A stretch of DNA of 64,000 bases from NCBI GenBank assembly GCA_964648765.1, contig CAZYLF010000003.1:41676-105675 (forward strand), given 5' to 3'. The notes beneath the pieces are model-generated. The model did not search any database. It was not told the DNA's origin and saw only the letters and a list, made by a program, of their open reading frames with translations. Of the stretch, positions 1-10,476 are shown in pieces (the stretch's first letter is position 1; each line of letters begins with the position of its first letter). Origin of the DNA: an uncultured Candidatus Saccharibacteria bacterium (GTDB taxonomy: Bacteria; Patescibacteriota; Minisyncoccia; Phycocordibacterales; JACOZG01). A program made the translations under genes and the position numbers.

Positions 1-2469
1 CACTTGGAATGGTACTACTGAATCTAACAGCTCGTCATCTTCATCCGTGTCTCCTTGTTTGCTAACCAAAAACCTGGCAATCGAATTTCCACTTTTTGTA
101 CTTCCGACCAATTCAAAATCGTAGCCCGATGCCTGCAATTCATTTATTGCCTTATCTATCTCAACATCAAATTGGATCTGATTCTCAGATTTATCTATAC
201 CGATAATCCGGCCTTTTAGATTGTTATAGATTATTGGCGCAAACCTATCTGTTTCGTTAAAGAGGACGGGATCACCAATCTTGTAAGTTTGTATACCCCA
301 ATGCACAAGGGCATTTTCGTTGCTGCCTTGAAGAAACTTATTCAGATTGTTTATGCCGTACAGGCCGTCGTAATTTAAACAGAGAATTATTTCATCGTCC
401 TCTGGGGACTCAAAAATGGACTCGTTTAAAACGGTGGTATAGCCATTTCTCGTCATGCTTTCAAGAATATTGTCTTCAAGATTTCTAACCCTGTTCCAAA
501 ATTCAATCAGTTCTTTATTAGTAGTCCGATAAGGAACTGTCAGTTCGGATACAGCAGTCTTGGGTACAAAATATCGCGCAACATTAAACCAGTTTCCGAA
601 TATTATTGATTCTATCTGGAATACGTCACCAACTAATATTAAGGATTTGAACTTTGCCTTGTTCAAAACACCAATCATGTCTGTATTACTAACTGTGCTG
701 CACTCATCAATAATAAGAAGATCAAACTCTGTTTCAGTATTTCGATGAGACAGGAACTTAGCAATCGTTTGAAACGTGCTATTGGGTGCGTTTACCTTTC
801 TCTTCAAGTTATCGATAGCAGGATTGGTATTGGCTAAGTAAAGTTTTTGATTATCATTGAAAAAGTTTGATATGTGCTTTATCAATGTTGATTTTCCTGT
901 ACCCGCCGCACCATATATTAATGCCACCTCGGAATCTGCAAACATCTGTCTTAGGATTCTCTCCTTATCTTCGCAGTCAATTTGATATGCAGATAACTTC
1001 AGCCACGAGTCTACGGAATTCGAGTAGTTGTTTATACCATTCGATGATAACTCTTTAAGTTTTTTAATGATGTCTAAAGTATCTTTTTCATACCCGTTTA
1101 TATAAATAAAATCTTTGAAGGTTTCTAGCTTGCGATGTATGTGCTTGTAGTAGAGCTTTCTGTTGTAGGTGGCGATCAGATTTTCAGCCTCTTCCTTTGT
1201 CTTGGATAAGCCTTCTATAGGTGTATATAGTTTTCCCTTACTCTCTGTGTTGTCCTTTATCAATCTCGCAAAAAGTTCATGTTCTCGATCTGCCGCACTA
1301 ATACACTCAAAAACATCTGAGATCTTGGGATTGTGCCCTTTCAGTGAGGAGTTGAAAGGCATCGTATCGAATGGCTTACATCCAAGATTAAGATTCAAAT
1401 CTTCTCGAAGCTTGTATCCGCCATAATAGCTGCGCTGCAGCTTTATAATTCTATTATTTAAAGAGCGCAGTAAATATCTAACTACGTTAGTGCCAACTTC
1501 ATTACCCCTGACCAAGGCTTTGGCTTTCTCTAAAACATTCAAAAAATGTACTACCTGTACACCCTGAGCAATACGATTTTTTGCGCCATCATAGTAATCA
1601 TCTGGGAGATCAATAATTTCGACGAGACTTAGGCTAGTCTCTGTCAAAAAACTCATCAAATTTTTGTATTCCGCACTCTTTGACTGAACATCTATATTCT
1701 CGCCCAAAATGCGAGCAAAGTTGTTAAGTTCGCAGGGTCGAATGGAAACCTCCCATTTATCAATGATGTGAATAGGCATCTTTTTGCCCAAAACCTCAAT
1801 ATCGTCGTGTATTACAGAAAGCTTAACCGCGTAATTATCGGAAATATCTAGCTTGGTAAAAGCGATGACTCTATCAAACTTACTGATTTGTGCACTCGCT
1901 ATTGTAAAAGTGACTTCGTAGTATATTTCGTGCTTAACAAAAAGTGGTTTGATTTTTTGGATATAGTACCGATCTCTATAGGGGCTTACCTTTCTTGCTT
2001 TTGTTGGGTGTTCGATTCTCTCAACTATCTTTTCGTAGTATTCCTGCAAGGCAAGGTCAGTGTTTATCGGGAACTTATCGATATTACTTAAAACGTCTAA
2101 GCCATAGGTATTCTTGAGACGAGATTTAATCCTGATTAAATACTCATAATATTTCAACATTAGACGTTCCGAGTTTTCTTCGCTCTGTGTGTAGTGCGAC
2201 GCGACACCCTGCAAAAAATTATGAAACCTTCTCAGATATCCCAAAGACCCTTTTGGCTGCAATCTATTTGGAGCGTTTATTAAACCATCAGACGTAATCT
2301 CTATATCTTGTCCGTTAGCTTCTTCTTTTAAGGCAATATGCTCGACGAAGTTCCTAAGCTGAGACAGGATATTCTGCGACAAAAGACCTCTTTCTGAGGC
2401 GTGGAATTTATCGATATTTTTACAGATTGCTGTATCGATAGTTAGTATTTCGCTATCCAGTCTATTCAT
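1..2469 (-). CDS. Superfamily-1B (RecD/Pif1-like) helicase with ~500-aa N-terminal domain of unknown function; C-terminus runs off window start (partial)
   Basis: Continuous minus-strand frame from ATG at 2467-2469 down to position 1. It is absent from the ORF track because it has no stop in the window. My translation shows Walker A YGAAGTGKST, Walker B LLIIDECS, motif III LILVGDVFQIESI (GDxxQ) and a RecD-type C-terminal segment IGDPVLFNETDRF...NLKGRIIGID. A TATAAT box lies ~10 nt upstream of the ATG. Confidence 0.6.
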   Translation of the reverse strand, partial: MNRLDSEILTIDTAICKNIDKFHASERGLLSQNILSQLRNFVEHIALKEEANGQDIEITSDGLINAPNRLQPKGSLGYLRRFHNFLQGVASHYTQSEENSERLMLKYYEYLIRIKSRLKNTYGLDVLSNIDKFPINTDLALQEYYEKIVERIEHPTKARKVSPYRDRYYIQKIKPLFVKHEIYYEVTFTIASAQISKFDRVIAFTKLDISDNYAVKLSVIHDDIEVLGKKMPIHIIDKWEVSIRPCELNNFARILGENIDVQSKSAEYKNLMSFLTETSLSLVEIIDLPDDYYDGAKNRIAQGVQVVHFLNVLEKAKALVRGNEVGTNVVRYLLRSLNNRIIKLQRSYYGGYKLREDLNLNLGCKPFDTMPFNSSLKGHNPKISDVFECISAADREHELFARLIKDNTESKGKLYTPIEGLSKTKEEAENLIATYNRKLYYKHIHRKLETFKDFIYINGYEKDTLDIIKKLKELSSNGINNYSNSVDSWLKLSAYQIDCEDKERILRQMFADSEVALIYGAAGTGKSTLIKHISNFFNDNQKLYLANTNPAIDNLKRKVNAPNSTFQTIAKFLSHRNTETEFDLLIIDECSTVSNTDMIGVLNKAKFKSLILVGDVFQIESIIFGNWFNVARYFVPKTAVSELTVPYRTTNKELIEFWNRVRNLEDNILESMTRNGYTTVLNESIFESPEDDEIILCLNYDGLYGINNLNKFLQGSNENALVHWGIQTYKIGDPVLFNETDRFAPIIYNNLKGRIIGIDKSENQIQFDVEIDKAINELQASGYDFELVGSTKSGNSIARFLVSKQGDTDEDDELLDSVVPFQV

Positions 2470-2663
2470 AACTAGAATTATACTGTGAGTAGATTAATTT
2501 GGGCCACTGTCGGGGATACAAAATAAAATCTCTCTACCCCTCTAGATACTTCGATACTTCTCTAGGCTGCTGACCGACTAGGACTAGAATTAAACCCAAA
2601 TTACGCCCAAACTATATACCTAAGATGGGAATTGTCCAATGATTTTGCGAGGAGAGATCGGGT

Positions 2664-3107
2664 CTAAATCCTCCGGCTATCGTAGGCCCAGTGGAGGAGG
2701 GCTTGGCGTTGCACCGGGCGACACAGAGTGTCGCCCGGACGGCAGTTGTGGGCAATTTGGGCCAGGTGGCGGCGCATGTTTTGCCAGCGTTTAATTTGTC
2801 TCTCATCCTCTTTTGGCAAACGTCGGCCGAGATAATAACGGCAATACCACTCAAACCACCCCCGCGGATCCACCTCATTGATCCAACCCTTCTTCTGCCA
2901 CACGGCCAGCGATTGGCTCGCATTAACGCCAAAATAATTTAATTCTTTATGCCGCTTACCATCCGGCGAGAGTTTAGCCTTGCGCCACCAACTCTTAGGA
3001 TACTCAGCAGGCTTATCGCCAAAATATAGCCCACCAAACACGCCGAGCTCAAGCATCTCCTTGGGCGTTAAGTCCGGTTTAAAATCTGGGTGGAATGGCT
3101 TCATCAA
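2664..3107 (-). CDS. Conserved hypothetical small protein (W/Y/R-rich, motif GWFEWYCRYYLGRR); GC-rich gene
   Basis: 147-aa ORF with no overlapping alternative of similar quality. GC content is far above the window average. Confidence 0.35.
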   Translation of the reverse strand: MMKPFHPDFKPDLTPKEMLELGVFGGLYFGDKPAEYPKSWWRKAKLSPDGKRHKELNYFGVNASQSLAVWQKKGWINEVDPRGWFEWYCRYYLGRRLPKEDERQIKRWQNMRRHLAQIAHNCRPGDTLCRPVQRQALLHWAYDSRRI

Positions 3108-3159
3108 TCTGATTCTACAACCTCCTCACCTCTTCGGCGAGTTATGCTAGGATAAAGTT

Positions 3160-4431
3160 ATGAAAAATGAGGGTGGGAAAATAGAGGAAATAGTGTGGGA
3201 TGTGGCCGTGATTGGCGGTGGGCCAGCGGGCATGATGGCGGCCGCGCGCGCGGCGGAACGTGGCGCGCGGGTTGTGTTGCTTGAGAAGAATGAGGGCTTG
3301 GGTAAAAAGCTCTTAATCACCGGTGGTGGGCGTTGCAATGTGACCAATGGCGAACACGACGACCGCAAACTGCTGGAGAAGTTTGGCGAGGCGGGTAAAT
3401 ATCTTTTCTCCACCTTCTCACAATGGAGTGTAGACGAGACTTTAAACTTTTTCTGGAGTCGCGGGATGCAGACTTGGGTGGAGAATGAGTTGCGCATCTT
3501 CCCTCTCTCCAACAAGGCCGAGAGCGTGTGGCAAGTGTTGGTGGATTATCTTAAACAAAATAAAGTTGAAATAATTTCAAAAGCTGAAGTGATTGGGCTA
3601 GAGCAAAAAAATGGTTTAGTAACTGGCGCAATTTTAAAAAATAAAAAGGTGATAAGGGCTAAAAACTTTATCTTAGCCACTGGTGGCAAGTCGCACCCCG
3701 AGACGGGCTCCACTGGCGAAGGCTTCGCTTGGCTGGCCACGCTCGGTCACACCATCATCAATCCCACCGCCTCACTTGTGCCTATTAAGTCGCGCGATGA
3801 GTGGGTCAAAAAGTTGCAAGGCGTCACGCTCAAAGATATTAAAATTACTTTGTATCAAAATGGTGTTAAGCAAACTAAGCCGAAGGTAGGTAAAATCCTC
3901 TTCACTCATTTTGGCGTCAGTGGCCCTACGATCCTAAACCTAAGCTCCGAGGTTGGCGAGCTACTTAAATATGGCGAAGTGATAATTTCTCTCGACCTCT
4001 TCCCTAAACTTAGTCACGAGACAGTGGATGATATGTTGCAAAAGATCCACACCGAGCACAGTGCCAAAATGTTAAAAAATAGTTTAGCTGAATTTATTAT
4101 GCCTGCGCTGGTGAGCGGCGTGCTCGAGATGGCGCAAGTTAACGGCAACGCCTTCGGTCACACGCTCGGGCGTGAGTCTCGACTTGAGGTGGTTAAAACT
4201 CTTAAAGCTCTCCCCATCCGCGTGAGTGGTTTGCTCGGAGAAGATAAGGCCATTGTGACCTCCGGCGGCGTGAAGCTAGATGAAGTTAACTTTAAAACTA
4301 TGAGCTCCCGCCTCATCCCCAATCTCCACCTTGTCGGCGACCTCTTAAACATCAACCGCCCCAGCGGCGGCTTCAGTCTCCAACTCTGCTGGACCACCGG
4401 TTATGTGGCCGGGAATTCCATATTAATTTAG
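3160..4431 (+). CDS. NAD(P)/FAD-dependent oxidoreductase, HI0933/BaiN-like flavoprotein family
   Basis: N-terminal dinucleotide fold DVAVIGGGPAGMMAAARAAERGARVVLLEKN followed by GGGRCNVTN. 423 aa is typical for this family. GC-rich, with an internal AT-rich segment at 3540-3680. Confidence 0.7.
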   Translation: MKNEGGKIEEIVWDVAVIGGGPAGMMAAARAAERGARVVLLEKNEGLGKKLLITGGGRCNVTNGEHDDRKLLEKFGEAGKYLFSTFSQWSVDETLNFFWSRGMQTWVENELRIFPLSNKAESVWQVLVDYLKQNKVEIISKAEVIGLEQKNGLVTGAILKNKKVIRAKNFILATGGKSHPETGSTGEGFAWLATLGHTIINPTASLVPIKSRDEWVKKLQGVTLKDIKITLYQNGVKQTKPKVGKILFTHFGVSGPTILNLSSEVGELLKYGEVIISLDLFPKLSHETVDDMLQKIHTEHSAKMLKNSLAEFIMPALVSGVLEMAQVNGNAFGHTLGRESRLEVVKTLKALPIRVSGLLGEDKAIVTSGGVKLDEVNFKTMSSRLIPNLHLVGDLLNINRPSGGFSLQLCWTTGYVAGNSILI

Positions 4432-4752
4432 AATTACAACTAGGATTTTAATAACAATATAAATAAGTAAAATAAATTCGAGAGCGTGGCGAAGAAAGTG
4501 GAACTTTAGATCATCAGCAACTGTGCCTGAATGCATATATAGTTCAAAATGTTCAGCAAGCCGACCGACAAGCGATAAGACTAAAGCCGCAAACAATGTT
4601 CCTCTAAAAATGAACGGAGTCATAAGCGCGAGACCATCTGCTCCCAGCAGATGAGGCAACACTTTGATCAGCCAATAAAATTCTGAAATAAAAACGTAAG
4701 CCGTAACGACAATTATCGTTACTTTTTTTACTGAATTAGTTGCTCTGCCCAT
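4423..4752 (-). CDS. Hypothetical small membrane protein
   Basis: 109-aa ORF with two or three hydrophobic helices. Only ORF evidence. Confidence 0.3.
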   Translation of the reverse strand: MGRATNSVKKVTIIVVTAYVFISEFYWLIKVLPHLLGADGLALMTPFIFRGTLFAALVLSLVGRLAEHFELYMHSGTVADDLKFHFLRHALEFILLIYIVIKILVVILN

Positions 4753-4793
4753 TTTTATTTATCTTAACATAATTAACAACTTACGAAATAATT

Positions 4794-4830
4794 AAAAAAC
4801 ACCCCGAGATACATAAAGCATCTCGGGGTG
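4794..4830 (-). terminator. Rho-independent terminator downstream of cupin gene
   Basis: Hairpin CACCCCGAGAT...ATCTCGGGGTG followed by a T-run on the minus strand. Confidence 0.55.
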
Positions 4831-4860
4831 GTCTGCGTTTAACTCATCAAGTGACATCTA

Positions 4861-5577
4861 CTAATGATAATGAACGTCATCCATACTGAAGCTTGGTGAA
4901 CACAAGCAGAGCGCCACCAAGTACTGATCGTTGTTGTTGCGGATTGCGTGAGGTGAGCCAGTGCTAATCTCCACCCAATCACCAGCCATCGCCTGTCCGA
5001 TCTCTCCATCAACCTCGATCACGCCCGAACCCTCCACCACATACACAAACTCTGTGGTCCGCTGGTGATAATGCGGTTTTTTGTGCCGGGCTGGATCATT
5101 GATCACCCAACCGAAGGCCAAACTCAAATTGAGGCTGGGGAAGTCGTAGGGGATGATCTTGGCGCCGTCAAAGCACTCAACGACGGCTGGGAGGAGATGT
5201 GGCTCGCTCACTGGTCGCCAGTGACTTTGCTCACCCAACACTTGCACATCGGTAGGGTCAAACGGTGGTAGGGCCAACACCAAATGCTCCAAGCTGGTGG
5301 CACCGGTGTTAAAAAACTGATGCGGCGTCTTGGCGGGGATAGAGATCACAGAACCGGCCTGCACCTGGTAGGACTGACTACCGATCACCAAATTGCCACA
5401 ACCCCGAGTGATGGCATAAACCTCGACCATCCGCTCGTGCTGATGGAGGAGGGAAAAAGCACCGGGATTCATCAGGACGTGGGCTACACTCATAAAGGGA
5501 TCTCGATAAACTTCCCTCAGTAACTGATCGCACACATTGGCCGCTAGCGGCAGGGCGGGGACACTGATTTTCTTCAC
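4861..5577 (-). CDS. Bicupin (two cupin domains) protein
   Basis: Two cupin metal-binding motifs: HQHERMVEVYAITRGCG and HYHQRTTEFVYVVEGSG. GC-rich. Confidence 0.55.
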   Translation of the reverse strand: MKKISVPALPLAANVCDQLLREVYRDPFMSVAHVLMNPGAFSLLHQHERMVEVYAITRGCGNLVIGSQSYQVQAGSVISIPAKTPHQFFNTGATSLEHLVLALPPFDPTDVQVLGEQSHWRPVSEPHLLPAVVECFDGAKIIPYDFPSLNLSLAFGWVINDPARHKKPHYHQRTTEFVYVVEGSGVIEVDGEIGQAMAGDWVEISTGSPHAIRNNNDQYLVALCLCSPSFSMDDVHYH

Positions 5578-5732
5578 TCTTTGCTCCTATGTTAGAGATC
5601 TGATCGTTCCTATTTAGATCCTACCTGATTACCTCACTCTTTACAACTAGGTCCAAAGTCTGTATTTAAATTAAAATCGCCACGCACCGCATGGTGCATG
5701 GCGATTGTGTGACGGTGATTAAGATTTGCGTC

Positions 5733-6254
5733 TCAATCCCCTGTCTTCACTTCTTCCTTTTTCTTCTCACCCTTAAACGCATCCTTGATGATACCTGTTG
5801 CTTTTACTGCGCCGTTGGCCGCACCAGTGAATGCACCTTCAACAATGTTGCCAGTAACCTTACCCGCGTTATCGCGGATCCCTGCGCCAATGCCAGCAAA
5901 ATTGTTGACCTTTCTGTAGGCAATGAGATCATCATTGCTCCCAAATTGACAATCTTTGCCGGCACTCCTGACAGTAAAATTTTCCTTTACAGCGGATACG
6001 GGGTAAAGAACCTTGATCTTTGTGCCCCACGGATCAATGTCAGCAATCGCGTCACCAGCAGCATGGTCGTAACCTGCACCATCTCGCTTGGTCTCCAAGA
6101 TGTCTGCGGTGTGACTTACCAGGGCTCGCGCGGTGGCGTTCTTGGCGCGATCTTCTGCGCCGCTGAACCAGAGAAATAGAGCAACAACACACGCGGCCAT
6201 AAGGGCGACAGCAGTTAAAATAGCACTTGATCCAGAATTACGAGTGTTCGACAT
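5733..6254 (-). CDS. Hypothetical membrane-anchored/exported protein (Gly/Ala-rich ectodomain)
   Basis: Start reassigned to the internal ATG at 6254 (MSNTRNSGSSAILTAVALMAACVVALFLWF). It is preceded by a GGAGG RBS and followed by an N-terminal TM/signal anchor. Confidence 0.4.
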   Translation of the reverse strand: MSNTRNSGSSAILTAVALMAACVVALFLWFSGAEDRAKNATARALVSHTADILETKRDGAGYDHAAGDAIADIDPWGTKIKVLYPVSAVKENFTVRSAGKDCQFGSNDDLIAYRKVNNFAGIGAGIRDNAGKVTGNIVEGAFTGAANGAVKATGIIKDAFKGEKKKEEVKTGD

Positions 6255-6413
6255 TCCAAATCCTCCCAAATTAAGGTCCACACCAGGCCAACATTTGGCC
6301 TTTTTATCAACTTCGACTATAGCATTATTACCTCCAATTGTCAAATACCATATCACCGGCGACCTAGCCACCAGATTAAAAACTGCAATCAACGAGATCG
6401 ATAAGATTTTAGT

Positions 6414-6449
6414 TTAAAAAAACAGCAGGAACGTAGTGGTTCCTGCTGT
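6414..6449 (-). terminator. Rho-independent terminator after Ubl-E1-JAB-E2 operon
   Basis: Hairpin CAGCAGGAAC-gtagtg-GTTCCTGCTG followed by a T-run on the minus strand. Confidence 0.55.
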
Positions 6450-6475
6450 AGTAACATAACAATCAAAACAAAGAG

Positions 6476-6757
6476 CTAATTCCCCCGAATCTTGGCAATA
6501 GCAAGAATTGTGTCACCAGACTCAACAAAGTCATCTAGACTGGCCTCTTGCCCATTACGCTGAAGTTCACATTTGTCGATATTCTTAATTCCGACTTTTG
6601 TGAAAAGTTCACGAATGCTGATCTTTTTTGTTATCGGAACCTCCTTGATCTCTCCAGGAATTTTTCCGATACTAACAATTGCATCTTTCTGAATAATGCG
6701 CACATCAGGCAAACTTTCAACCGGCTCTTCCATAAATTCCTTTATCCTATTGCTCAT
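6476..6757 (-). CDS. ThiS/MoaD-like beta-grasp ubiquitin-like protein, C-terminus ...SGDTILAIAKIRGN (Gly followed by one Asn)
   Basis: 93 aa. The C-terminal region resembles the MoaD/ThiS ending dGDEvaiiPPVsGG. AAGGAG RBS 7 nt upstream of the ATG. It is the last gene of the E2-JAB-E1 operon. Confidence 0.5.
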   Translation of the reverse strand: MSNRIKEFMEEPVESLPDVRIIQKDAIVSIGKIPGEIKEVPITKKISIRELFTKVGIKNIDKCELQRNGQEASLDDFVESGDTILAIAKIRGN

Positions 6758-6783
6758 TTGATTCTCCTTTCAGAATCTGAGGT

Positions 6784-7467
6784 TCAGTAACTTTTACTAA
6801 GAACCATCAAGGGTGACAAAGAAACAATCGCCTCATTTGCAAACTTTTTGTTGTTCACAAAGTTGATCATTGTAAACACTGCCATACCAGCCAAAGTGGC
6901 TACGGTTGGTGCAATTGCCCTTCTCGTACAGGCACTTTCTTCCGCTTCGGCATCAGAATACAGGGTTTTTTCATAAGCTGCAATCTGTTGCGGCATCGCT
7001 GGCTTGATAGCGTAGATTCTCCCCCCTTCAGCTTCCATTCGTGTCTCAATCATCAGGTCAACTTTTAGTTGCAAGCGAATTGAGGATTCCCAAATTGTCT
7101 TCCTACTTTCCATTGTGTCGGTAAGTACGAAAACAATTCCCTTAAGCGATCCCTTGGTAAACTTCTTAGAGACCGTTTTGATCTTGATGCCAGTGCCGGC
7201 TTCAACTGCTTCGGCCAAGGCTTCGACTTTCTTTTTTCCGACATCTCCAAGGCCAAAGACCTGATTTGGCAGATTATGATTCTCTACCTCATCAAAGTCA
7301 TAGACTGTGATGTCTTTACACCCCATCTTGGCCAAGAGCCAAACGATGTAGGAGCCGGTTGCACCGACGCCGATCACCGTGATTGGTTTCTTGAAGTTTG
7401 ACGGAGAAAAGATGTCGAGCTGGCGCCAATAGTCAGGTTCACTTTTTACGGTTTTTCCGCGCGGCAT
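6784..7467 (-). CDS. E1-like ThiF/MoeB-family adenylyltransferase
   Basis: Rossmann motif ITVIGVGATGSYIVWLLAKMG, followed by DFDEVENHNL. A C-terminal ESACTRRAIAPTV segment matches the E1 catalytic-Cys region. Start set at the ATG with an AGGGAGG RBS (7467); the ORF track start at 7548 is further upstream. Confidence 0.7.
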   Translation of the reverse strand: MPRGKTVKSEPDYWRQLDIFSPSNFKKPITVIGVGATGSYIVWLLAKMGCKDITVYDFDEVENHNLPNQVFGLGDVGKKKVEALAEAVEAGTGIKIKTVSKKFTKGSLKGIVFVLTDTMESRKTIWESSIRLQLKVDLMIETRMEAEGGRIYAIKPAMPQQIAAYEKTLYSDAEAEESACTRRAIAPTVATLAGMAVFTMINFVNNKKFANEAIVSLSPLMVLSKSY

Positions 7468-8107
7468 TTTTTCCTCCCTTCTCATAGAATGAGCCAGCTT
7501 TGACCTTGTCCTTAATCTCTTTGGCAATCGCTTTGCGCCGTTTGTCATCTCCGAGATGCATTTGCCAAGGACAATCGGTGATTTTTACATTTTTTGTGTA
7601 ATCAAAAAAATCGAAAACACATTTTCCTTCTCGAGTAAAAATACCACGGATAAAAAATGGATTGTGAGCAAATAGCTCCATCTGGTCATCATCCTGACCT
7701 GAAGGTTCAGTCATGTCCCCAGGATGCAAATGTCCCCAGAAAAGTAGGGAATTAAGAATTTTTTTGTTTGCTGTATCCCTTTGCAACATATCAGTGTAGA
7801 ACTTGCCAATACTTGCTTGATCAAACTCACAATGAGTGCCACTCACTTGCTGATCAAAAAGGAATACCTTTTCGATGAGATAATGGCCGTCATCCAATTT
7901 ATTAACCGTACCGAGCCAACCCACCTCATCGTTACCTGCGGCCTCCATGATGTAGTGCGTATCGGTATACGCCTCAAGTGACAAGAGAATGGTTGGGGTT
8001 ACGACTTCGACCATCGATTGGATTTGCGGTTCTGCCTCGTGAGGGAACAACGGTTTGACTGGTTCCTCCTCAAGTAACATTCCATGGTTTTGACTTGATG
8101 ACCTCAT
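7439..8107 (-). CDS. JAB/MPN (JAMM) metallo-isopeptidase
   Basis: Complete JAMM motif: upstream Glu (HCEFDQ) followed by HLHPGDMTEPSGQD (HxHx7Sx2D). The start ATG overlaps the E2 gene stop (ATGA). Confidence 0.75.
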   Translation of the reverse strand: MRSSSQNHGMLLEEEPVKPLFPHEAEPQIQSMVEVVTPTILLSLEAYTDTHYIMEAAGNDEVGWLGTVNKLDDGHYLIEKVFLFDQQVSGTHCEFDQASIGKFYTDMLQRDTANKKILNSLLFWGHLHPGDMTEPSGQDDDQMELFAHNPFFIRGIFTREGKCVFDFFDYTKNVKITDCPWQMHLGDDKRRKAIAKEIKDKVKAGSFYEKGGKNAARKNRKK

Positions 8108-9018
8108 TCTTTTTTCTCCTTTCGTTTAGAGATTTTCTTTTCAGAAACTGGCCAATTACTAATTTCTGAATATGGTCCATAGAAACTCGATTTCTCATAA
8201 CTCTTAAGGTACTGAATGCAGACCATTATTACAGCGGGGTACTTGTGCTCAGCAATCATATGGGGAATAACTTCCTGAATATTACCGAGACAAGGTTTAC
8301 CTTCATGATTAACGTGTGGATGGTGATTTCTGCTCCCATATCCATCACTAGCGGAATTTGTTCGATTTATCATCCTCACCCCACCCCGTTCGCCAAGTGT
8401 ATTGATTGTGATCTTGAATTTTCCAATTTCATAATCAACTCGATTGTATCTAATAGTTATCGGTCCTGTGTAGACCAAAATGTTCTTTCCACTAACCTCA
8501 ATCCTCTCAATATCGGGATGCTTAAGTAGACCATTAAATTCATCACCGAATCTTGCGAGCGCGGCATCATCAGTGCCAGAAACAGCTGTAAGCTGTTGCT
8601 GTTTTTCTTCCATTTTACGCAAAAGAGTAACAAGTTGTTCTTGGGATTTTTCAACGGCCGACCGCAGTCTTGATGTCTCGTGCTTGAGAGTACGTAAACG
8701 CTCAGCCTTGCGGTTGTAGCCGCAAAGTTCCATGTATTTGCGCTTCAAGGTGTCATTAGGACTTTTCTTGGACTTCCGTTTGACATCCACATTGCCATTA
8801 TTACTGAATCTGGCCAAATATACGCCCCGGTAGTTCGTCTTAACTTTTGAAATTTGCCGCTCGGTAACACCAAGAATGCCGCAAACTTCACCAAGATCTT
8901 CCATTGGGATCGCCTTGCACACCGTCCCATTAATACTAAGACGGGTGGTTTTGATCCCAGCTAGACTAGCGCCATTTAGACTTTTTTCCGAAAACGCAAT
9001 GAGTGTTTTAGCCTCCAT
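8104..9018 (-). CDS. E2-like (UBC-fold) conjugating enzyme with N-terminal HTH-like domain and central coiled coil
   Basis: The C-terminal half has a beta-rich segment followed by HHPHVNHEGKPCLGNI, which resembles the E2 HPN-x(5-8)-Cys active-site signature. The N-terminus has an HTH-like LGEVCGILGVTERQISK. The middle (RKAERLRTLKHETSRLRSAVEKSQEQL) is a heptad-rich coiled coil. Confidence 0.5.
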   Translation of the reverse strand: MEAKTLIAFSEKSLNGASLAGIKTTRLSINGTVCKAIPMEDLGEVCGILGVTERQISKVKTNYRGVYLARFSNNGNVDVKRKSKKSPNDTLKRKYMELCGYNRKAERLRTLKHETSRLRSAVEKSQEQLVTLLRKMEEKQQQLTAVSGTDDAALARFGDEFNGLLKHPDIERIEVSGKNILVYTGPITIRYNRVDYEIGKFKITINTLGERGGVRMINRTNSASDGYGSRNHHPHVNHEGKPCLGNIQEVIPHMIAEHKYPAVIMVCIQYLKSYEKSSFYGPYSEISNWPVSEKKISKRKEKKE

Positions 9019-9147
9019 TTTACCATCCTTCTCCTTTCTTTTTTGAATTATTGATTGTCAAAAACCTTTAATTTAGAGCTTTTTAGGCCCCAAACCTCTG
9101 TTATGATCCAAGCATAAAAAATTAAATTTGTAAAGAGAGTTTGGAAT

Positions 9148-9801
9148 TCATGATTTTATTATATCAGCCTCAGTTAGTTCAAGTTTAAGTTCTTTAAGAA
9201 AAGTATGTAAGAATTTGGTTCTGCGTTTGGCAATCTTTTTGGCAAGTTTTGTATGCATACGCTTTTCTGCAACCAAAAGTCGTTTGTAAAACAAAGCCAC
9301 GCCAGATGCGGAATTTAATTCCGCGGCCTCATTAAGCGGATTGTCAGGATTGTAAAAACCTCTGTTCATCTGACCGCCAGAAGAAAAGGTTCTGATAATT
9401 GAAATGGCACCGGTGGACTCCAACAAATCAGCATCCTGGAGAACTTTGGACTCCAAAAGTTCTGGCATTATCGCTTTTGAAAATGAGCATTGTTTAATGC
9501 AAGTTACTACATCTTTAATTTTATGCTTTGGGTATTCGCTAATCCCCTCCAAAATTTGTGTGGCCACATCAGCACTCTCATCAGTTTCGTTTTTACTTTG
9601 TGGTGAATCTTTACGGTAAACTACCGTGTCGTGGAAGAGCGCAGCTGGGATAACCACCTCAAGATCCGCACCCACACTCTCACCGATTTTAATCGCCATA
9701 TTTAACACTCGACTTATATGTTCAAAATCGTGAGACGGATCTTCCTTGGTCTGCCTCTCTTTAGCAATCAGTTTTAATTTATCAAAAACTTTTGGGTTCA
9801 T
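9148..9801 (-). CDS. HD-domain metal-dependent phosphohydrolase
   Basis: H...HD signature (HDFEHISRVL ... ALFHDTV) and a later D residue; 217 aa. Confidence 0.65.
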   Translation of the reverse strand: MNPKVFDKLKLIAKERQTKEDPSHDFEHISRVLNMAIKIGESVGADLEVVIPAALFHDTVVYRKDSPQSKNETDESADVATQILEGISEYPKHKIKDVVTCIKQCSFSKAIMPELLESKVLQDADLLESTGAISIIRTFSSGGQMNRGFYNPDNPLNEAAELNSASGVALFYKRLLVAEKRMHTKLAKKIAKRRTKFLHTFLKELKLELTEADIIKS

Positions 9802-9804
9802 AAT

Positions 9805-10317
9805 TCATTTAGCGTTTAGTGCTTTTAAACCGGCGATGTCGGGCTGGTCTATGTGTTCTCGCCCCACCAACATCTCTTTATTTTTGATAATAAGTTCTTT
9901 GGAAAGGAGCGGAAGTTTGAATCCTAAAAATTCCACTACCTCAATATCAGGGAAACCATTTTTATAAAAATTCACGTACTTATTTGTTTCTTTGTCGAGG
10001 ATATTCATCTCAGCCATCGGGCAGATGTCTATAACTATTCCCCCGACGGTAATTTCCACATTGTAGTTATCATAATTTTGATCTACAAAATGTTCAAGCG
10101 GACTTGTGATTCTCAACTCAACGAGTTTTAAGAATTCCGCAAAGACAGGATCATCTTTTGAAGTCTCGATATCAATATCGATGTCTGTTAGCTTGCGAGG
10201 TACGCCATACACATAACAAGCAAATCCGCCCGTGATGCACCAACGCAAGTTTAATTTATCCAAGATTGGAATAATAAACGAGAGCGCTTCGTGGACCTTT
10301 TGCTGCTGCGGATTCAT
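9805..10317 (-). CDS. Small nucleotidyltransferase-fold protein (Pol-beta superfamily)
   Basis: hG[GS]-x(9-13)-DhDh signature: ITGGFACYVYGVPRKLTDIDIDIETS. 170 aa, sits 3 nt upstream of the HD gene. Confidence 0.45.
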   Translation of the reverse strand: MNPQQQKVHEALSFIIPILDKLNLRWCITGGFACYVYGVPRKLTDIDIDIETSKDDPVFAEFLKLVELRITSPLEHFVDQNYDNYNVEITVGGIVIDICPMAEMNILDKETNKYVNFYKNGFPDIEVVEFLGFKLPLLSKELIIKNKEMLVGREHIDQPDIAGLKALNAK

Positions 10318-10320
10318 TTA

Positions 10321-10391
10321 CTGCCGGCCAGGGACTCGAACCCCAATACCCGCCTCCAAAGGGCGGTGTCCTACCATTAGACGAGCCGGCA
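10321..10391 (-). tRNA. tRNA-Gln (anticodon UUG)
   Basis: Hand-folded cloverleaf with 7-bp acceptor (U1:A72), D-stem GTCT/GGAC and anticodon stem CCGCC/GGCGG. Loop CTTTGGA gives anticodon TTG. T-loop is TTCGAGT and the discriminator is G73. U1:A72 plus G73 are classical Gln identity elements. CCA is not encoded. Confidence 0.8.
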
Positions 10392-10476
10392 AAGACCCTA
10401 ATAATCTACCAATCTATGAGCCGATTGTACAGAGATTGAAATGGCGAGAGTGAAGATGATAGAGTAGAACGATATA

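Follow-up and report, generated by a model that had tools for sequence, protein, structure and literature searches.

Ubiquitin-like proteins (Ubls) are classically made as precursors in which a Gly-Gly pair is followed by a short variable tail, and the precursor is cut after the second Gly. In the Type II Bil system (BilABCD), an antiphage system found in Ensifer aridi among others, the peptidase BilC cuts the Ubl BilA between G97 and A98, and in a crystal structure of the E1:E2:Ubl complex the uncleaved A98 occupies the place of ATP (PMC10557695). In the Bub pathway, BubCD cleaves its Ubl immediately after a conserved Gly (PMC11601596). The microcin C family has been described as the only one with E1-like enzymes that act on a C-terminal Asn (PMC11118369); there, a C-terminal Asn is the native adenylation target of the ThiF-type enzyme MccB, and of 19 substitutions at this residue only Ala, Gly, Ser and Thr were stimulatory (PMC11118369, PMC12250964). 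Here, we describe a four-gene cassette encoding an E2-like protein, a JAMM/JAB metallopeptidase, a minimal ThiF-type E1 and a Ubl in a 64,000-nucleotide stretch of DNA from an uncultured Candidatus Saccharibacteria bacterium (GCA_964648765.1, contig CAZYLF010000003.1, positions 41,676 to 105,675). This whole stretch is referred to below as the window, and all coordinates are in its numbering. The Ubl of the cassette ends in Gly-Asn. Judging from the sequences of its relatives, a family-wide Gly-Asn signature replaces Gly-Gly and co-evolves with the active sites of both the E1 and the JAB peptidase.

The Ubl gene (6476..6757, minus strand) encodes a protein of 93 residues with the C-terminal sequence A-I-A-K-I-R-G-N. 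The codons of Gly92 (6482-6484) and Asn93 (6479-6481), which together make up the conserved C-terminal dipeptide of the family (6479..6484, minus strand), are followed by a TAG stop codon at 6476-6478. The ATG start codon (6755-6757) lies 6 nucleotides downstream of a Shine-Dalgarno-like AAAGGAG (6764-6770), and the gene has a strong ribosome-binding site of its own. Neither the Ubl nor the E2-like protein gave any match in Pfam, NCBIfam, PHROGs or PADLOC. An AlphaFold (AF2) model of the Ubl, with a predicted local distance difference test score (pLDDT) of 77 overall and 85-90 in the core, consists of a low-confidence N-terminal extension (residues 1-24) and a beta-grasp core (residues ~25-93), and was matched by Foldseek to Mth1743, TtuB, MoaD, ubiquitin, SUMO and NEDD8. 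The open reading frame (ORF), the sequence and the model all bear out an earlier interpretation of this DNA by a model that was given only the letters and their ORFs (the sequence-only reading), in which the gene was said to encode a beta-grasp protein ending in Arg-Gly-Asn. The same reading had raised the possibility of a sequencing error that changed the position of the stop codon. Such an error is excluded, since several independent contigs encode a protein identical to the window Ubl and the G-N end is found in 13 of 14 close homologues (47-70% identity), 11 of which stop at GN while two end in GNQ. The exception, P0012, is divergent across its C-terminal part.

When 1.84 billion representative proteins were searched by profile, 266 Ubl relatives were found, and C-termini were counted in 282 non-identical relatives, which provided 233 terminal units and 178 internal repeat junctions. 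Many of the relatives are head-to-tail poly-Ubls with two to four repeats of about 70 residues, each ending in KGN followed by a linker of 2-5 residues (for example P0016, P0018, P0020, P0028, P0037 and P0041), and others consist of two Ubl repeats and a C-terminal domain of 130-230 residues with a coiled-coil end (P0058, P0071, P0082 and P0088). A relative of one of these kinds is encoded at L011:1320-1946. Both kinds must be cut by a peptidase for their units to be freed, as is eukaryotic polyubiquitin. The terminal dipeptide was GN in 170 of the 233 terminal units, GG in 38, GA in 19, AN in two, and SN, GS and AG in one each; one further unit ended in Gly alone. The internal junctions were GN in 158 cases, GA in 11 and GG in five. 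Asn was thereby found at the last conserved position of 73% of the terminal units and 89% of the junctions, and the Gly at -2 was conserved in 228 of the 233 terminal units. The sequence-only reading had suggested comparing the ends of homologues and had named varied termini without a conserved Gly at -2 as the contrary case, which is not the pattern that the comparison gave.

Beyond the dipeptide, 117 of the terminal units have no further residue, 80 have one, 18 have two and 18 have three or more, and these tail residues are not conserved. Since GN is kept at both ends and junctions while the tail varies, the conserved block ends after the Asn, and the arrangement of block and variable tail is the same as that of Ubl precursors with Gly-Gly plus tail. 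In the rare SN and AN ends, the Asn is kept and the Gly is lost. The Ubls of the GG type form a single sister clade on the E1 tree, belong to the same cassette and have their GG at the same two positions. The final Asn looks like a conserved working residue in place of the last Gly of ubiquitin, and not like a throw-away cap.

The sequence-only reading had instead taken the Asn as a one-residue mask that is removed by JAB. In its full form, this would mean that Gly92 is the reactive residue, and that the Asn, with anything beyond it, blocks the ATP site of the E1 until JAMM severs the bond between Gly and Asn. No member of the family could then be activated without JAB, and the Asn would have been kept to fit both the S1' pocket of JAB and the ATP site of the E1. 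We regard this as a possibility of some weight, although short of probable. The cut of BilA by BilC and the location of A98 at the ATP place of the E1 (PMC10557695) provide a direct precedent, and to this extent the removal by JAMM of a residue after Gly in a Bil-type system, as invoked in the sequence-only reading, is an experimentally demonstrated mechanism; BubCD likewise cuts after a conserved Gly (PMC11601596). JAB is found together with E1 and Ubl in every GN- or GA-type locus having enough flanking DNA, and a terminal unit that stops at the first Gly occurs just once in 233, as would be expected of an obligatory cap. The residues after the Gly are, however, not conserved in Type II Bil (PMC10557695), unlike the Asn found here, and the additional variable tail that follows the Asn in half of the proteins would be redundant if the Asn were itself a cap. 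The GG sister clade would need a cut between its two glycines, or a different register, and cleavage of the SN and AN variants would leave Ser or Ala at the end.

The register of the C-terminus bears on the same question. Among the PDB sequences searched with the Ubl profile, the best relative was SAMP2 of P. furiosus (E 4e-8), and MoaD, TtuB, ThiS and SAMP1 were also found. Every one of these alignments was ungapped from the GD turn to the end, with the Asn column on the last Gly of the partner's Gly-Gly. In addition, hhalign was run in local mode; global mode was set aside since it forces an end-to-end alignment. The local alignment with E. coli ThiS (probability 79%, E 1.6e-5) paired GDTILAIAKIRGN with GDQILLFQVIAGG, and K-I-R-G-N corresponds to R-L-R-G-G of ubiquitin position for position. 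These ungapped alignments with SAMP2, MoaD, TtuB, ThiS and ubiquitin place the Asn at the position of the reactive last Gly, and not as an extra residue after it. Removal of the Asn would leave a mature tail that falls one residue short of those of SAMP2, ThiS, MoaD, TtuB and ubiquitin.

Loci were collected through their E1, which presupposes neither JAB nor Ubl; 80 of 294 viral loci and 80 of more than 241 metagenomic loci were kept. Co-variation was assessed from parsimony changes on a neighbour-joining tree of the E1s with 224 branches, on which the Ubl end type changes seven times. The Thr in the Gly-rich ATP-binding loop of the E1 (G-V-G-A-T-G-S in the window, 7351..7371, minus strand; Thr codon 7357-7359, T64 of the 254-residue ORF) is present in 70 of 71 Asn-type cassettes, but in none of seven GA/GS-type cassettes, which have Val, Ile or Leu, and in one of 34 GG-type cassettes, most of which have Ile. 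Ile is also found at this position in ThiF, MoeB and the eukaryotic E1s. Six of the eight changes between Thr and other residues fall on the same branches as Ubl changes, five of them being independent Asn-to-Ala/Ser switches. With random placement, this overlap was never reached in 100,000 trials (p < 1e-5), and the Thr column ranks first of 214 in the E1. A second E1 site, located two residues before the Mg-binding Asp, shows partial co-variation. In JAB, the Gln of the S-x-Q-D motif (S-G-Q-D in the window) is present in 59 of 63 Asn-types, one of seven Ala/Ser-types and one of 16 Gly-types; five of its eight changes are shared with the Ubl, and it is the top column of 183. The active sites of both E1 and JAB would, by this measure, appear to read the final residue of the Ubl.

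A cap that had to fit JAB would likewise be expected to co-vary with its Gln (Gln138 in the window). A cap that concerned only the peptidase, on the other hand, would not be expected to co-evolve with the phosphate-binding loop of the E1, and the co-variation thereby favors Asn as the mature end. What stands of the proposed mask is the conserved Gly at -2, the co-encoded JAMM and the single-residue precedent in Bil (PMC10557695); the conservation of the Asn itself, its alignment on the reactive Gly, the GG sister clade and the co-variation with E1 and JAB count against it.

We therefore lean, with rather modest confidence, towards the reading that the Asn is the mature C-terminal residue activated by the E1, while JAB would trim what lies beyond it in relatives and reverse conjugation. 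From the gene content, folds, catalytic motifs, family conservation, positional equivalence and co-variation, we infer the bond cut by JAB, the adenylation of the Asn, the thioester relay and the existence of targets as follows. Asn93 would be presented to the adenylation site of the E1, where the loop Thr of G-x-G-A-T-G-S would read its side chain. The adenylated Ubl would form a thioester on Cys207 of the E1 and/or Cys243 of the E2-like protein, and would then be passed to a target amine. JAMM, by means of the Gln beside its zinc-binding Asp, would cut directly after the Asn, and this one cut would trim tails of 1-3 residues, split poly-Ubl repeats and Ubl fusions, and reverse conjugation. 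The window Ubl stops at the Asn, so that if the Asn is the activated residue, this Ubl would need no maturation by JAB and would be made ready for activation. The set of residues tolerated by MccB matches the N, G, A and S found at this position of the Ubls, which provides a chemical precedent for activation at Asn.

Several points weigh against this reading. To our knowledge, a C-terminal Gly is used by every Ubl for which E1-mediated conjugation has been shown experimentally, and all of the characterized JAMM enzymes that we know of cut after Gly. The co-variation of the E1 could be explained by a plug in the ATP site, as in the cap model, rather than by a substrate. No co-varying column passed in the E2-like proteins, the paralogues of which align poorly. 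The switch from GG to GN occurred only once in the tree, and the statistics lean on the five independent Asn-to-Ala/Ser switches on a neighbour-joining tree. Finally, an activated C-terminal Asn tends to cyclize to a succinimide, as it does in MccB (PMC12250964, PMC11118369), and formation of a succinimide would compete with thioester transfer.

Alternatively, the side chain of the activated Asn could take part in the chemistry, as in MccB. In that case, the carboxamide nitrogen of the adenylated Asn would attack to form a C-terminal succinimide, which would be opened by a target amine to give an iso-linked product, or would lead to nucleotidylation. We consider it improbable that the system carries out an MccB-like succinimide reaction on a folded beta-grasp protein, or uses the cyclization as a built-in timer on the activated state, with the Thr of the E1 and the Gln of JAB reading the Asn. 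MccB, also a ThiF-type enzyme, does perform this chemistry on a C-terminal Asn (PMC11118369, PMC12250964) and ranks with the best PDB sequence matches to the E1, although the match is limited to the Rossmann part and is no better than that of TcdA, and MccB's N-terminal peptide-clamp domain is missing from the E1. The strong conservation of the Asn, and its apparent reading by the phosphate-binding loop, would suit such chemistry. However, lineages that have the same cassette and end in GG, GA or GS are unable to form a succinimide, which makes the core pathway independent of it, and the invariant HPH...Cys of the E2-like protein points to a thioester relay.

The E2-like protein (304 residues; 8104..9018, minus strand), which the sequence-only reading had left out, consists of an N-terminal alpha/beta domain, a long coiled coil (residues ~101-147) and a UBC-like core (residues ~150-290). 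Its active-site motif, H-P-H-V-N-H-E-G-K-P-C (8290..8322, minus strand), includes the candidate catalytic residue Cys243. With hhalign, the C-terminal half of the protein was collinear with residues 2-121 of UBE2D2 (pairwise E 0.0015), and HPHVNHEGKPC was paired with HPNINSNGSIC; H233, P234 and C243 are invariant across 17 homologues. The top Foldseek matches of the AF2 model were UbcH7 (probability 0.99, E 0.019), UBE2L6 and a ubiquitin E2 variant (UEV). A sequence search against the PDB returned coiled-coil noise only. The protein thus has a predicted UBC fold, with moderate structural support, and its HPN-type motif precedes the putative catalytic Cys by 7-8 residues.

The JAMM/JAB metallopeptidase (222 residues; 7439..8107, minus strand) had only weak matches in the family libraries, all in PADLOC (JAB model, 4e-5). 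Its profile matches that of Rpn11 (E 0.007), the nearest solved relative, and the alignment extends through the JAMM motif. The motif, H-L-H-P-G-D-M-T-E-P-S-G-Q-D (7691..7732, minus strand), includes Gln138 (codon 7694-7696) next to the zinc ligand Asp139. The full E...HxH(x7)S(x2)D pattern is present, and its residues E61, H126, H128, S136 and D139 are invariant in 24 homologues. The description in the sequence-only reading of an "adjacent intact JAMM gene" was correct in that the gene is intact; it is not directly adjacent, as the E1 gene lies between JAMM and the Ubl.

The E1 is a minimal ThiF-family adenylation domain of 227 residues, counted from the ATG at 7465-7467 (6784..7467, minus strand). 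The longest ORF (254 residues) starts at 7548; the shorter form agrees with the gene call in locus L001. The protein matches Pfam ThiF (3.7e-23) and phrog_15670 (1.2e-23). Its E-E-S-A-C motif (6928..6942, minus strand) contains Cys207, which is aligned with Cys184 of ThiF and Cys187 of MoeB, is invariant in the family alignment (A7) and is the candidate thioester Cys. The protein has one adenylation domain, and has no CxxC zinc motifs, rhodanese domain, helical insertion or domain N-terminal to the Rossmann fold. In ThiF and MoeB, the Arg of the N-L-x-R-Q motif binds the ATP phosphate. All 11 family E1s aligned have Asn in place of this Arg, in the form N-[LIV]-[PA]-N-Q (N-L-P-N-Q in the window, 7261-7275). 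A specific kinship between the E1 and MccB was considered and rejected, the match being confined to the Rossmann region and no better than that with TcdA; the corresponding loop of MccB is GCGGIG, compared to GATGS in the window E1. To judge from their motifs, all three enzymes look competent, the E1 with its ThiF fold and Cys, the E2-like protein with HPH...Cys and the peptidase with the full JAMM motif.

With MoaD, ThiS and TtuB among the closest structured relatives of the Ubl, and an E1 that scores on the ThiF and MoeB models, a sulfur carrier of the ThiS/MoaD/CysO/QbsE type also had to be weighed. The E1 would then make a thiocarboxylate on the Ubl, JAB would trim the C-terminus, and no protein would be conjugated. 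We hold this to be very unlikely. The scores of the E1 on the NCBIfam ThiF and MoeB models (30-61 bits) are far under the cut-offs of 159-376 bits, and the E1 has neither the rhodanese domain nor the CxxC zinc motifs. No genes for thiamine, molybdopterin or cysteine synthesis or for sulfur metabolism were found near the operon, and the cassette occurs mostly in phage genomes. An E2-like protein with a catalytic Cys is always co-encoded, often in several copies, and its presence in the operon points to a system of the conjugation type, not to a sulfur carrier like CysO or QbsE. The comparison with CysO and QbsE drawn in the sequence-only reading does not fit an operon that has this E2 and no sulfur-metabolism genes.

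The four genes are co-directional and tightly packed on the minus strand in the order E2-like, JAMM, E1, Ubl, with the Ubl as the last gene. The stop codon of the E2-like gene overlaps the start of the JAB gene (ATGA, 8104-8107), and the 3' end of the JAB gene overlaps the start of the E1 gene by 29 nucleotides (7439-7467), which suggests that the three enzyme genes are translationally coupled. The operon is bounded by two terminator-like hairpins. One of these (6422..6449, minus strand), with an 11-bp stem and a tail of seven T residues, ends the operon 3' of the Ubl; the other (9070..9096, minus strand) lies upstream of the E2-like gene and separates the four-gene unit from an HD-domain gene. 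The window itself is bacterial chromosome, and encodes DnaK, DnaJ, RpoA and aminoacyl-tRNA synthetases. Directly upstream of the operon are the HD-domain gene (9148-9801), a nucleotidyltransferase-like gene (9805-10317) and a tRNA-Gln gene (10320-10392, minus strand). An HD-domain gene also adjoins the cassette in a Parcubacteria genome (L008:8210-8881). No att-like direct repeat of the tRNA-Gln was found within 1-10450.

Related cassettes occur mostly in large phage genomes and in Patescibacteria. There are at least 294 viral loci, many of them on contigs of 100-395 kb, and the JAB homologues bear the names of Patescibacteria and Parcubacteria. The GTDB representative genomes were scanned for Ubl patterns and, separately, for E2-like patterns, and neither were found. 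Where the flanking DNA is long enough, most loci encode one to six E2-like proteins, JAB, E1 and Ubl, in the order E2-JAB-E1-Ubl or Ubl-E2-JAB-E1, the latter making up about one quarter of the related loci. The E2-like paralogues form arrays beside a single JAB-E1-Ubl set, with six copies in L009:7844-12682 (on a contig of 1.17 Mb), three in L005:7270-9616 and two each in L006:6983-8519 and L007:3301-5988, and their N-terminal regions vary in length. Such arrays suggest that one Ubl serves several target specificities. Some phage cassettes (L016, L018, L027, L040 and L041) include additional small beta-grasp ORFs beside the regular Ubl that match the Ubl profile but do not have a G-[N/G/A] end (those of L016 and L018 end in ...VYAT and ...VYVD); these may be non-conjugatable partners with a Ubl fold.

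Loci without JAB were confined to one sub-clade of the GG type with high guanine-cytosine content (L131, L135, L140, L143, L145, L152, L154, L165, L167, L168 and L172), which encodes an E2-like protein of ~420 residues, E1 and Ubl, with no JAMM ORF in the available flanks. The Ubls of this sub-clade end in GG, but also in GGR, GGC, GGQ, GGRA and GGCA. A more distant pair of a JAMM metalloprotease and an E1 is present in cultured crAss-like Bacteroides phages and in Flavobacterium psychrophilum phages, for example in a Kehishuvirus (L174, OQ198717.1, 67588-76163; ORFs 2268-3503 and 3506-4657). The two proteins are annotated as "metalloprotease domain containing protein" and "thiamine biosynthesis protein", and the E1 is ~32% identical to the window E1 and has the loop GVGGIGS. 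The family profiles detected no Ubl or E2-like gene beside this pair.

A large family of Ubl conjugation cassettes in phages and Patescibacteria, with one to six E2-like proteins, a JAMM peptidase, a minimal ThiF-type E1 and a Ubl, has apparently gone undescribed; a literature search for a paper describing it found none, which is not proof of absence. Whichever residue is activated, the cassette seems to represent a ubiquitination-like system not yet catalogued. A removable cap is already known from Bil, and the new part is the Gly-Asn signature in a widespread, apparently uncatalogued system. If activation does take place at the Asn, this would be the first Ubl conjugation family that is activated at asparagine instead of glycine. 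The known chemistry of Ubl conjugation would be widened, with matched changes in the ATP loop of the E1 and the active site of JAB, and the pairing of Thr with Asn and of Ile or Val with Gly or Ala would be a natural specificity switch. The cassettes, the poly-Ubls and the arrays of up to six E2-like proteins also suggest that Ubl tagging is something the phages themselves direct against several targets.

Like Type II Bil, the window cassette has a separate Ubl, an E2-like protein with a putative catalytic Cys, a JAMM and an E1 in one operon. The Ubl is mostly a single beta-grasp with multi-domain variants in both, and the Bil JAB removes residues past the reactive position (G97|A98). The gene order of Type II Bil, Ubl-E2-DUB-E1 (where DUB is the deubiquitinase), differs from that of the window, but agrees with about one quarter of the related loci, and is a weak criterion. 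BilD has ~500 residues and contains both an inactive and an active adenylation domain, along with a CYS domain and a zinc site (PMC10557695), whereas the window E1 is a single domain of ~227 residues without CxxC. With the Ubl profile, BilA chains in the PDB stayed unmatched up to E 10, and the comparison with BilA rests on that profile search. Where Type II Bil has non-conserved residues after the Gly, the window family has a conserved Asn. The large N-terminal domain with a coiled coil in the E2-like protein, its frequent paralogues and the mainly phage-borne cassette are further differences from Bil.

SAMP2, the closest relative of the Ubl, belongs to the archaeal SAMP2/UbaA/JAMM1 sampylation system, which also has a small ThiS-like modifier, a minimal ThiF-type E1 and release by JAMM. 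The SAMPs, however, end in Gly-Gly and have no E2, whereas the window Ubl ends in Gly-Asn and a UBC-like E2 always accompanies the Ubl in the family, and the window E1 scores only 30 bits on the SAMPActivE1UbaA model, which has a cut-off of 450. Common to the cassette and the ubiquitin and NEDD8 pathways are a UBC-type E2 that has Cys and an HPN-like motif, a JAMM resembling Rpn11, head-to-tail poly-Ubl precursors and precursor tails of one to a few residues. The last repeat of yeast UBI4 has one extra Asn after its GG. Yeast Rub1 also has one extra Asn after GG (PMC12146660). In these eukaryotic proteins the Asn comes after Gly-Gly, while in the window family it is found instead of the second Gly; moreover, the window E1 is minimal and of the homodimer type, and there is no evident E3.

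The MccA/MccB pair resembles the cassette in combining a ThiF-type adenylating enzyme with a substrate that has a C-terminal Asn, here Asn93. MccA is a peptide of seven residues, compared to a beta-grasp protein of 93 residues in the window, and MccB has an N-terminal RiPP recognition element (RRE)/peptide-clamp domain, makes an N-P linked nucleotide, and involves no thioester, E2 or JAB. Bub (6E/DUF6527) is another Ubl pathway of bacteria; its Ubls have several beta-grasp domains, and its JAB cleaves a Ubl fusion behind the reactive residue. It differs in its Ser/Tyr oxyester chemistry, its fused proteins (Ubl-E2, JAB-E1 or E2-E1), its DUF6527 serine protease and an E2 in which Ser replaces Cys (PMC11601596). 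The genes of the window cassette are separate, Cys243 and HPH of the E2-like protein are invariant, and there is no match to DUF6527.

In cyclic-oligonucleotide-based antiphage signaling systems (CBASS) of Type II, the E2-E1 fusion Cap2 acts on the C-terminus of a cGAS/DncV-like nucleotidyltransferase (CD-NTase), and there is no beta-grasp Ubl. The window E1 matches only the E1 part of the Cap2 models of PADLOC, its E2 is separate, there is a beta-grasp Ubl, and none of the neighbouring genes was found to encode a CD-NTase. The features that characterize ThiS, MoaD, CysO and QbsE, namely a Gly-Gly end, an E1 that scores over the cut-offs and nearby sulfur or cofactor genes, are not those of the window cassette. 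Nor does it match operon types 6a-6e of Iyer et al.; the E2 of type 6d is without the classical His, which the window E2-like protein has. The cassette is outside the definitions of Type II Bil, Bub, CBASS and the sulfur carriers, and works like a Bil-type or eukaryote-like E1-E2-DUB-Ubl pathway.

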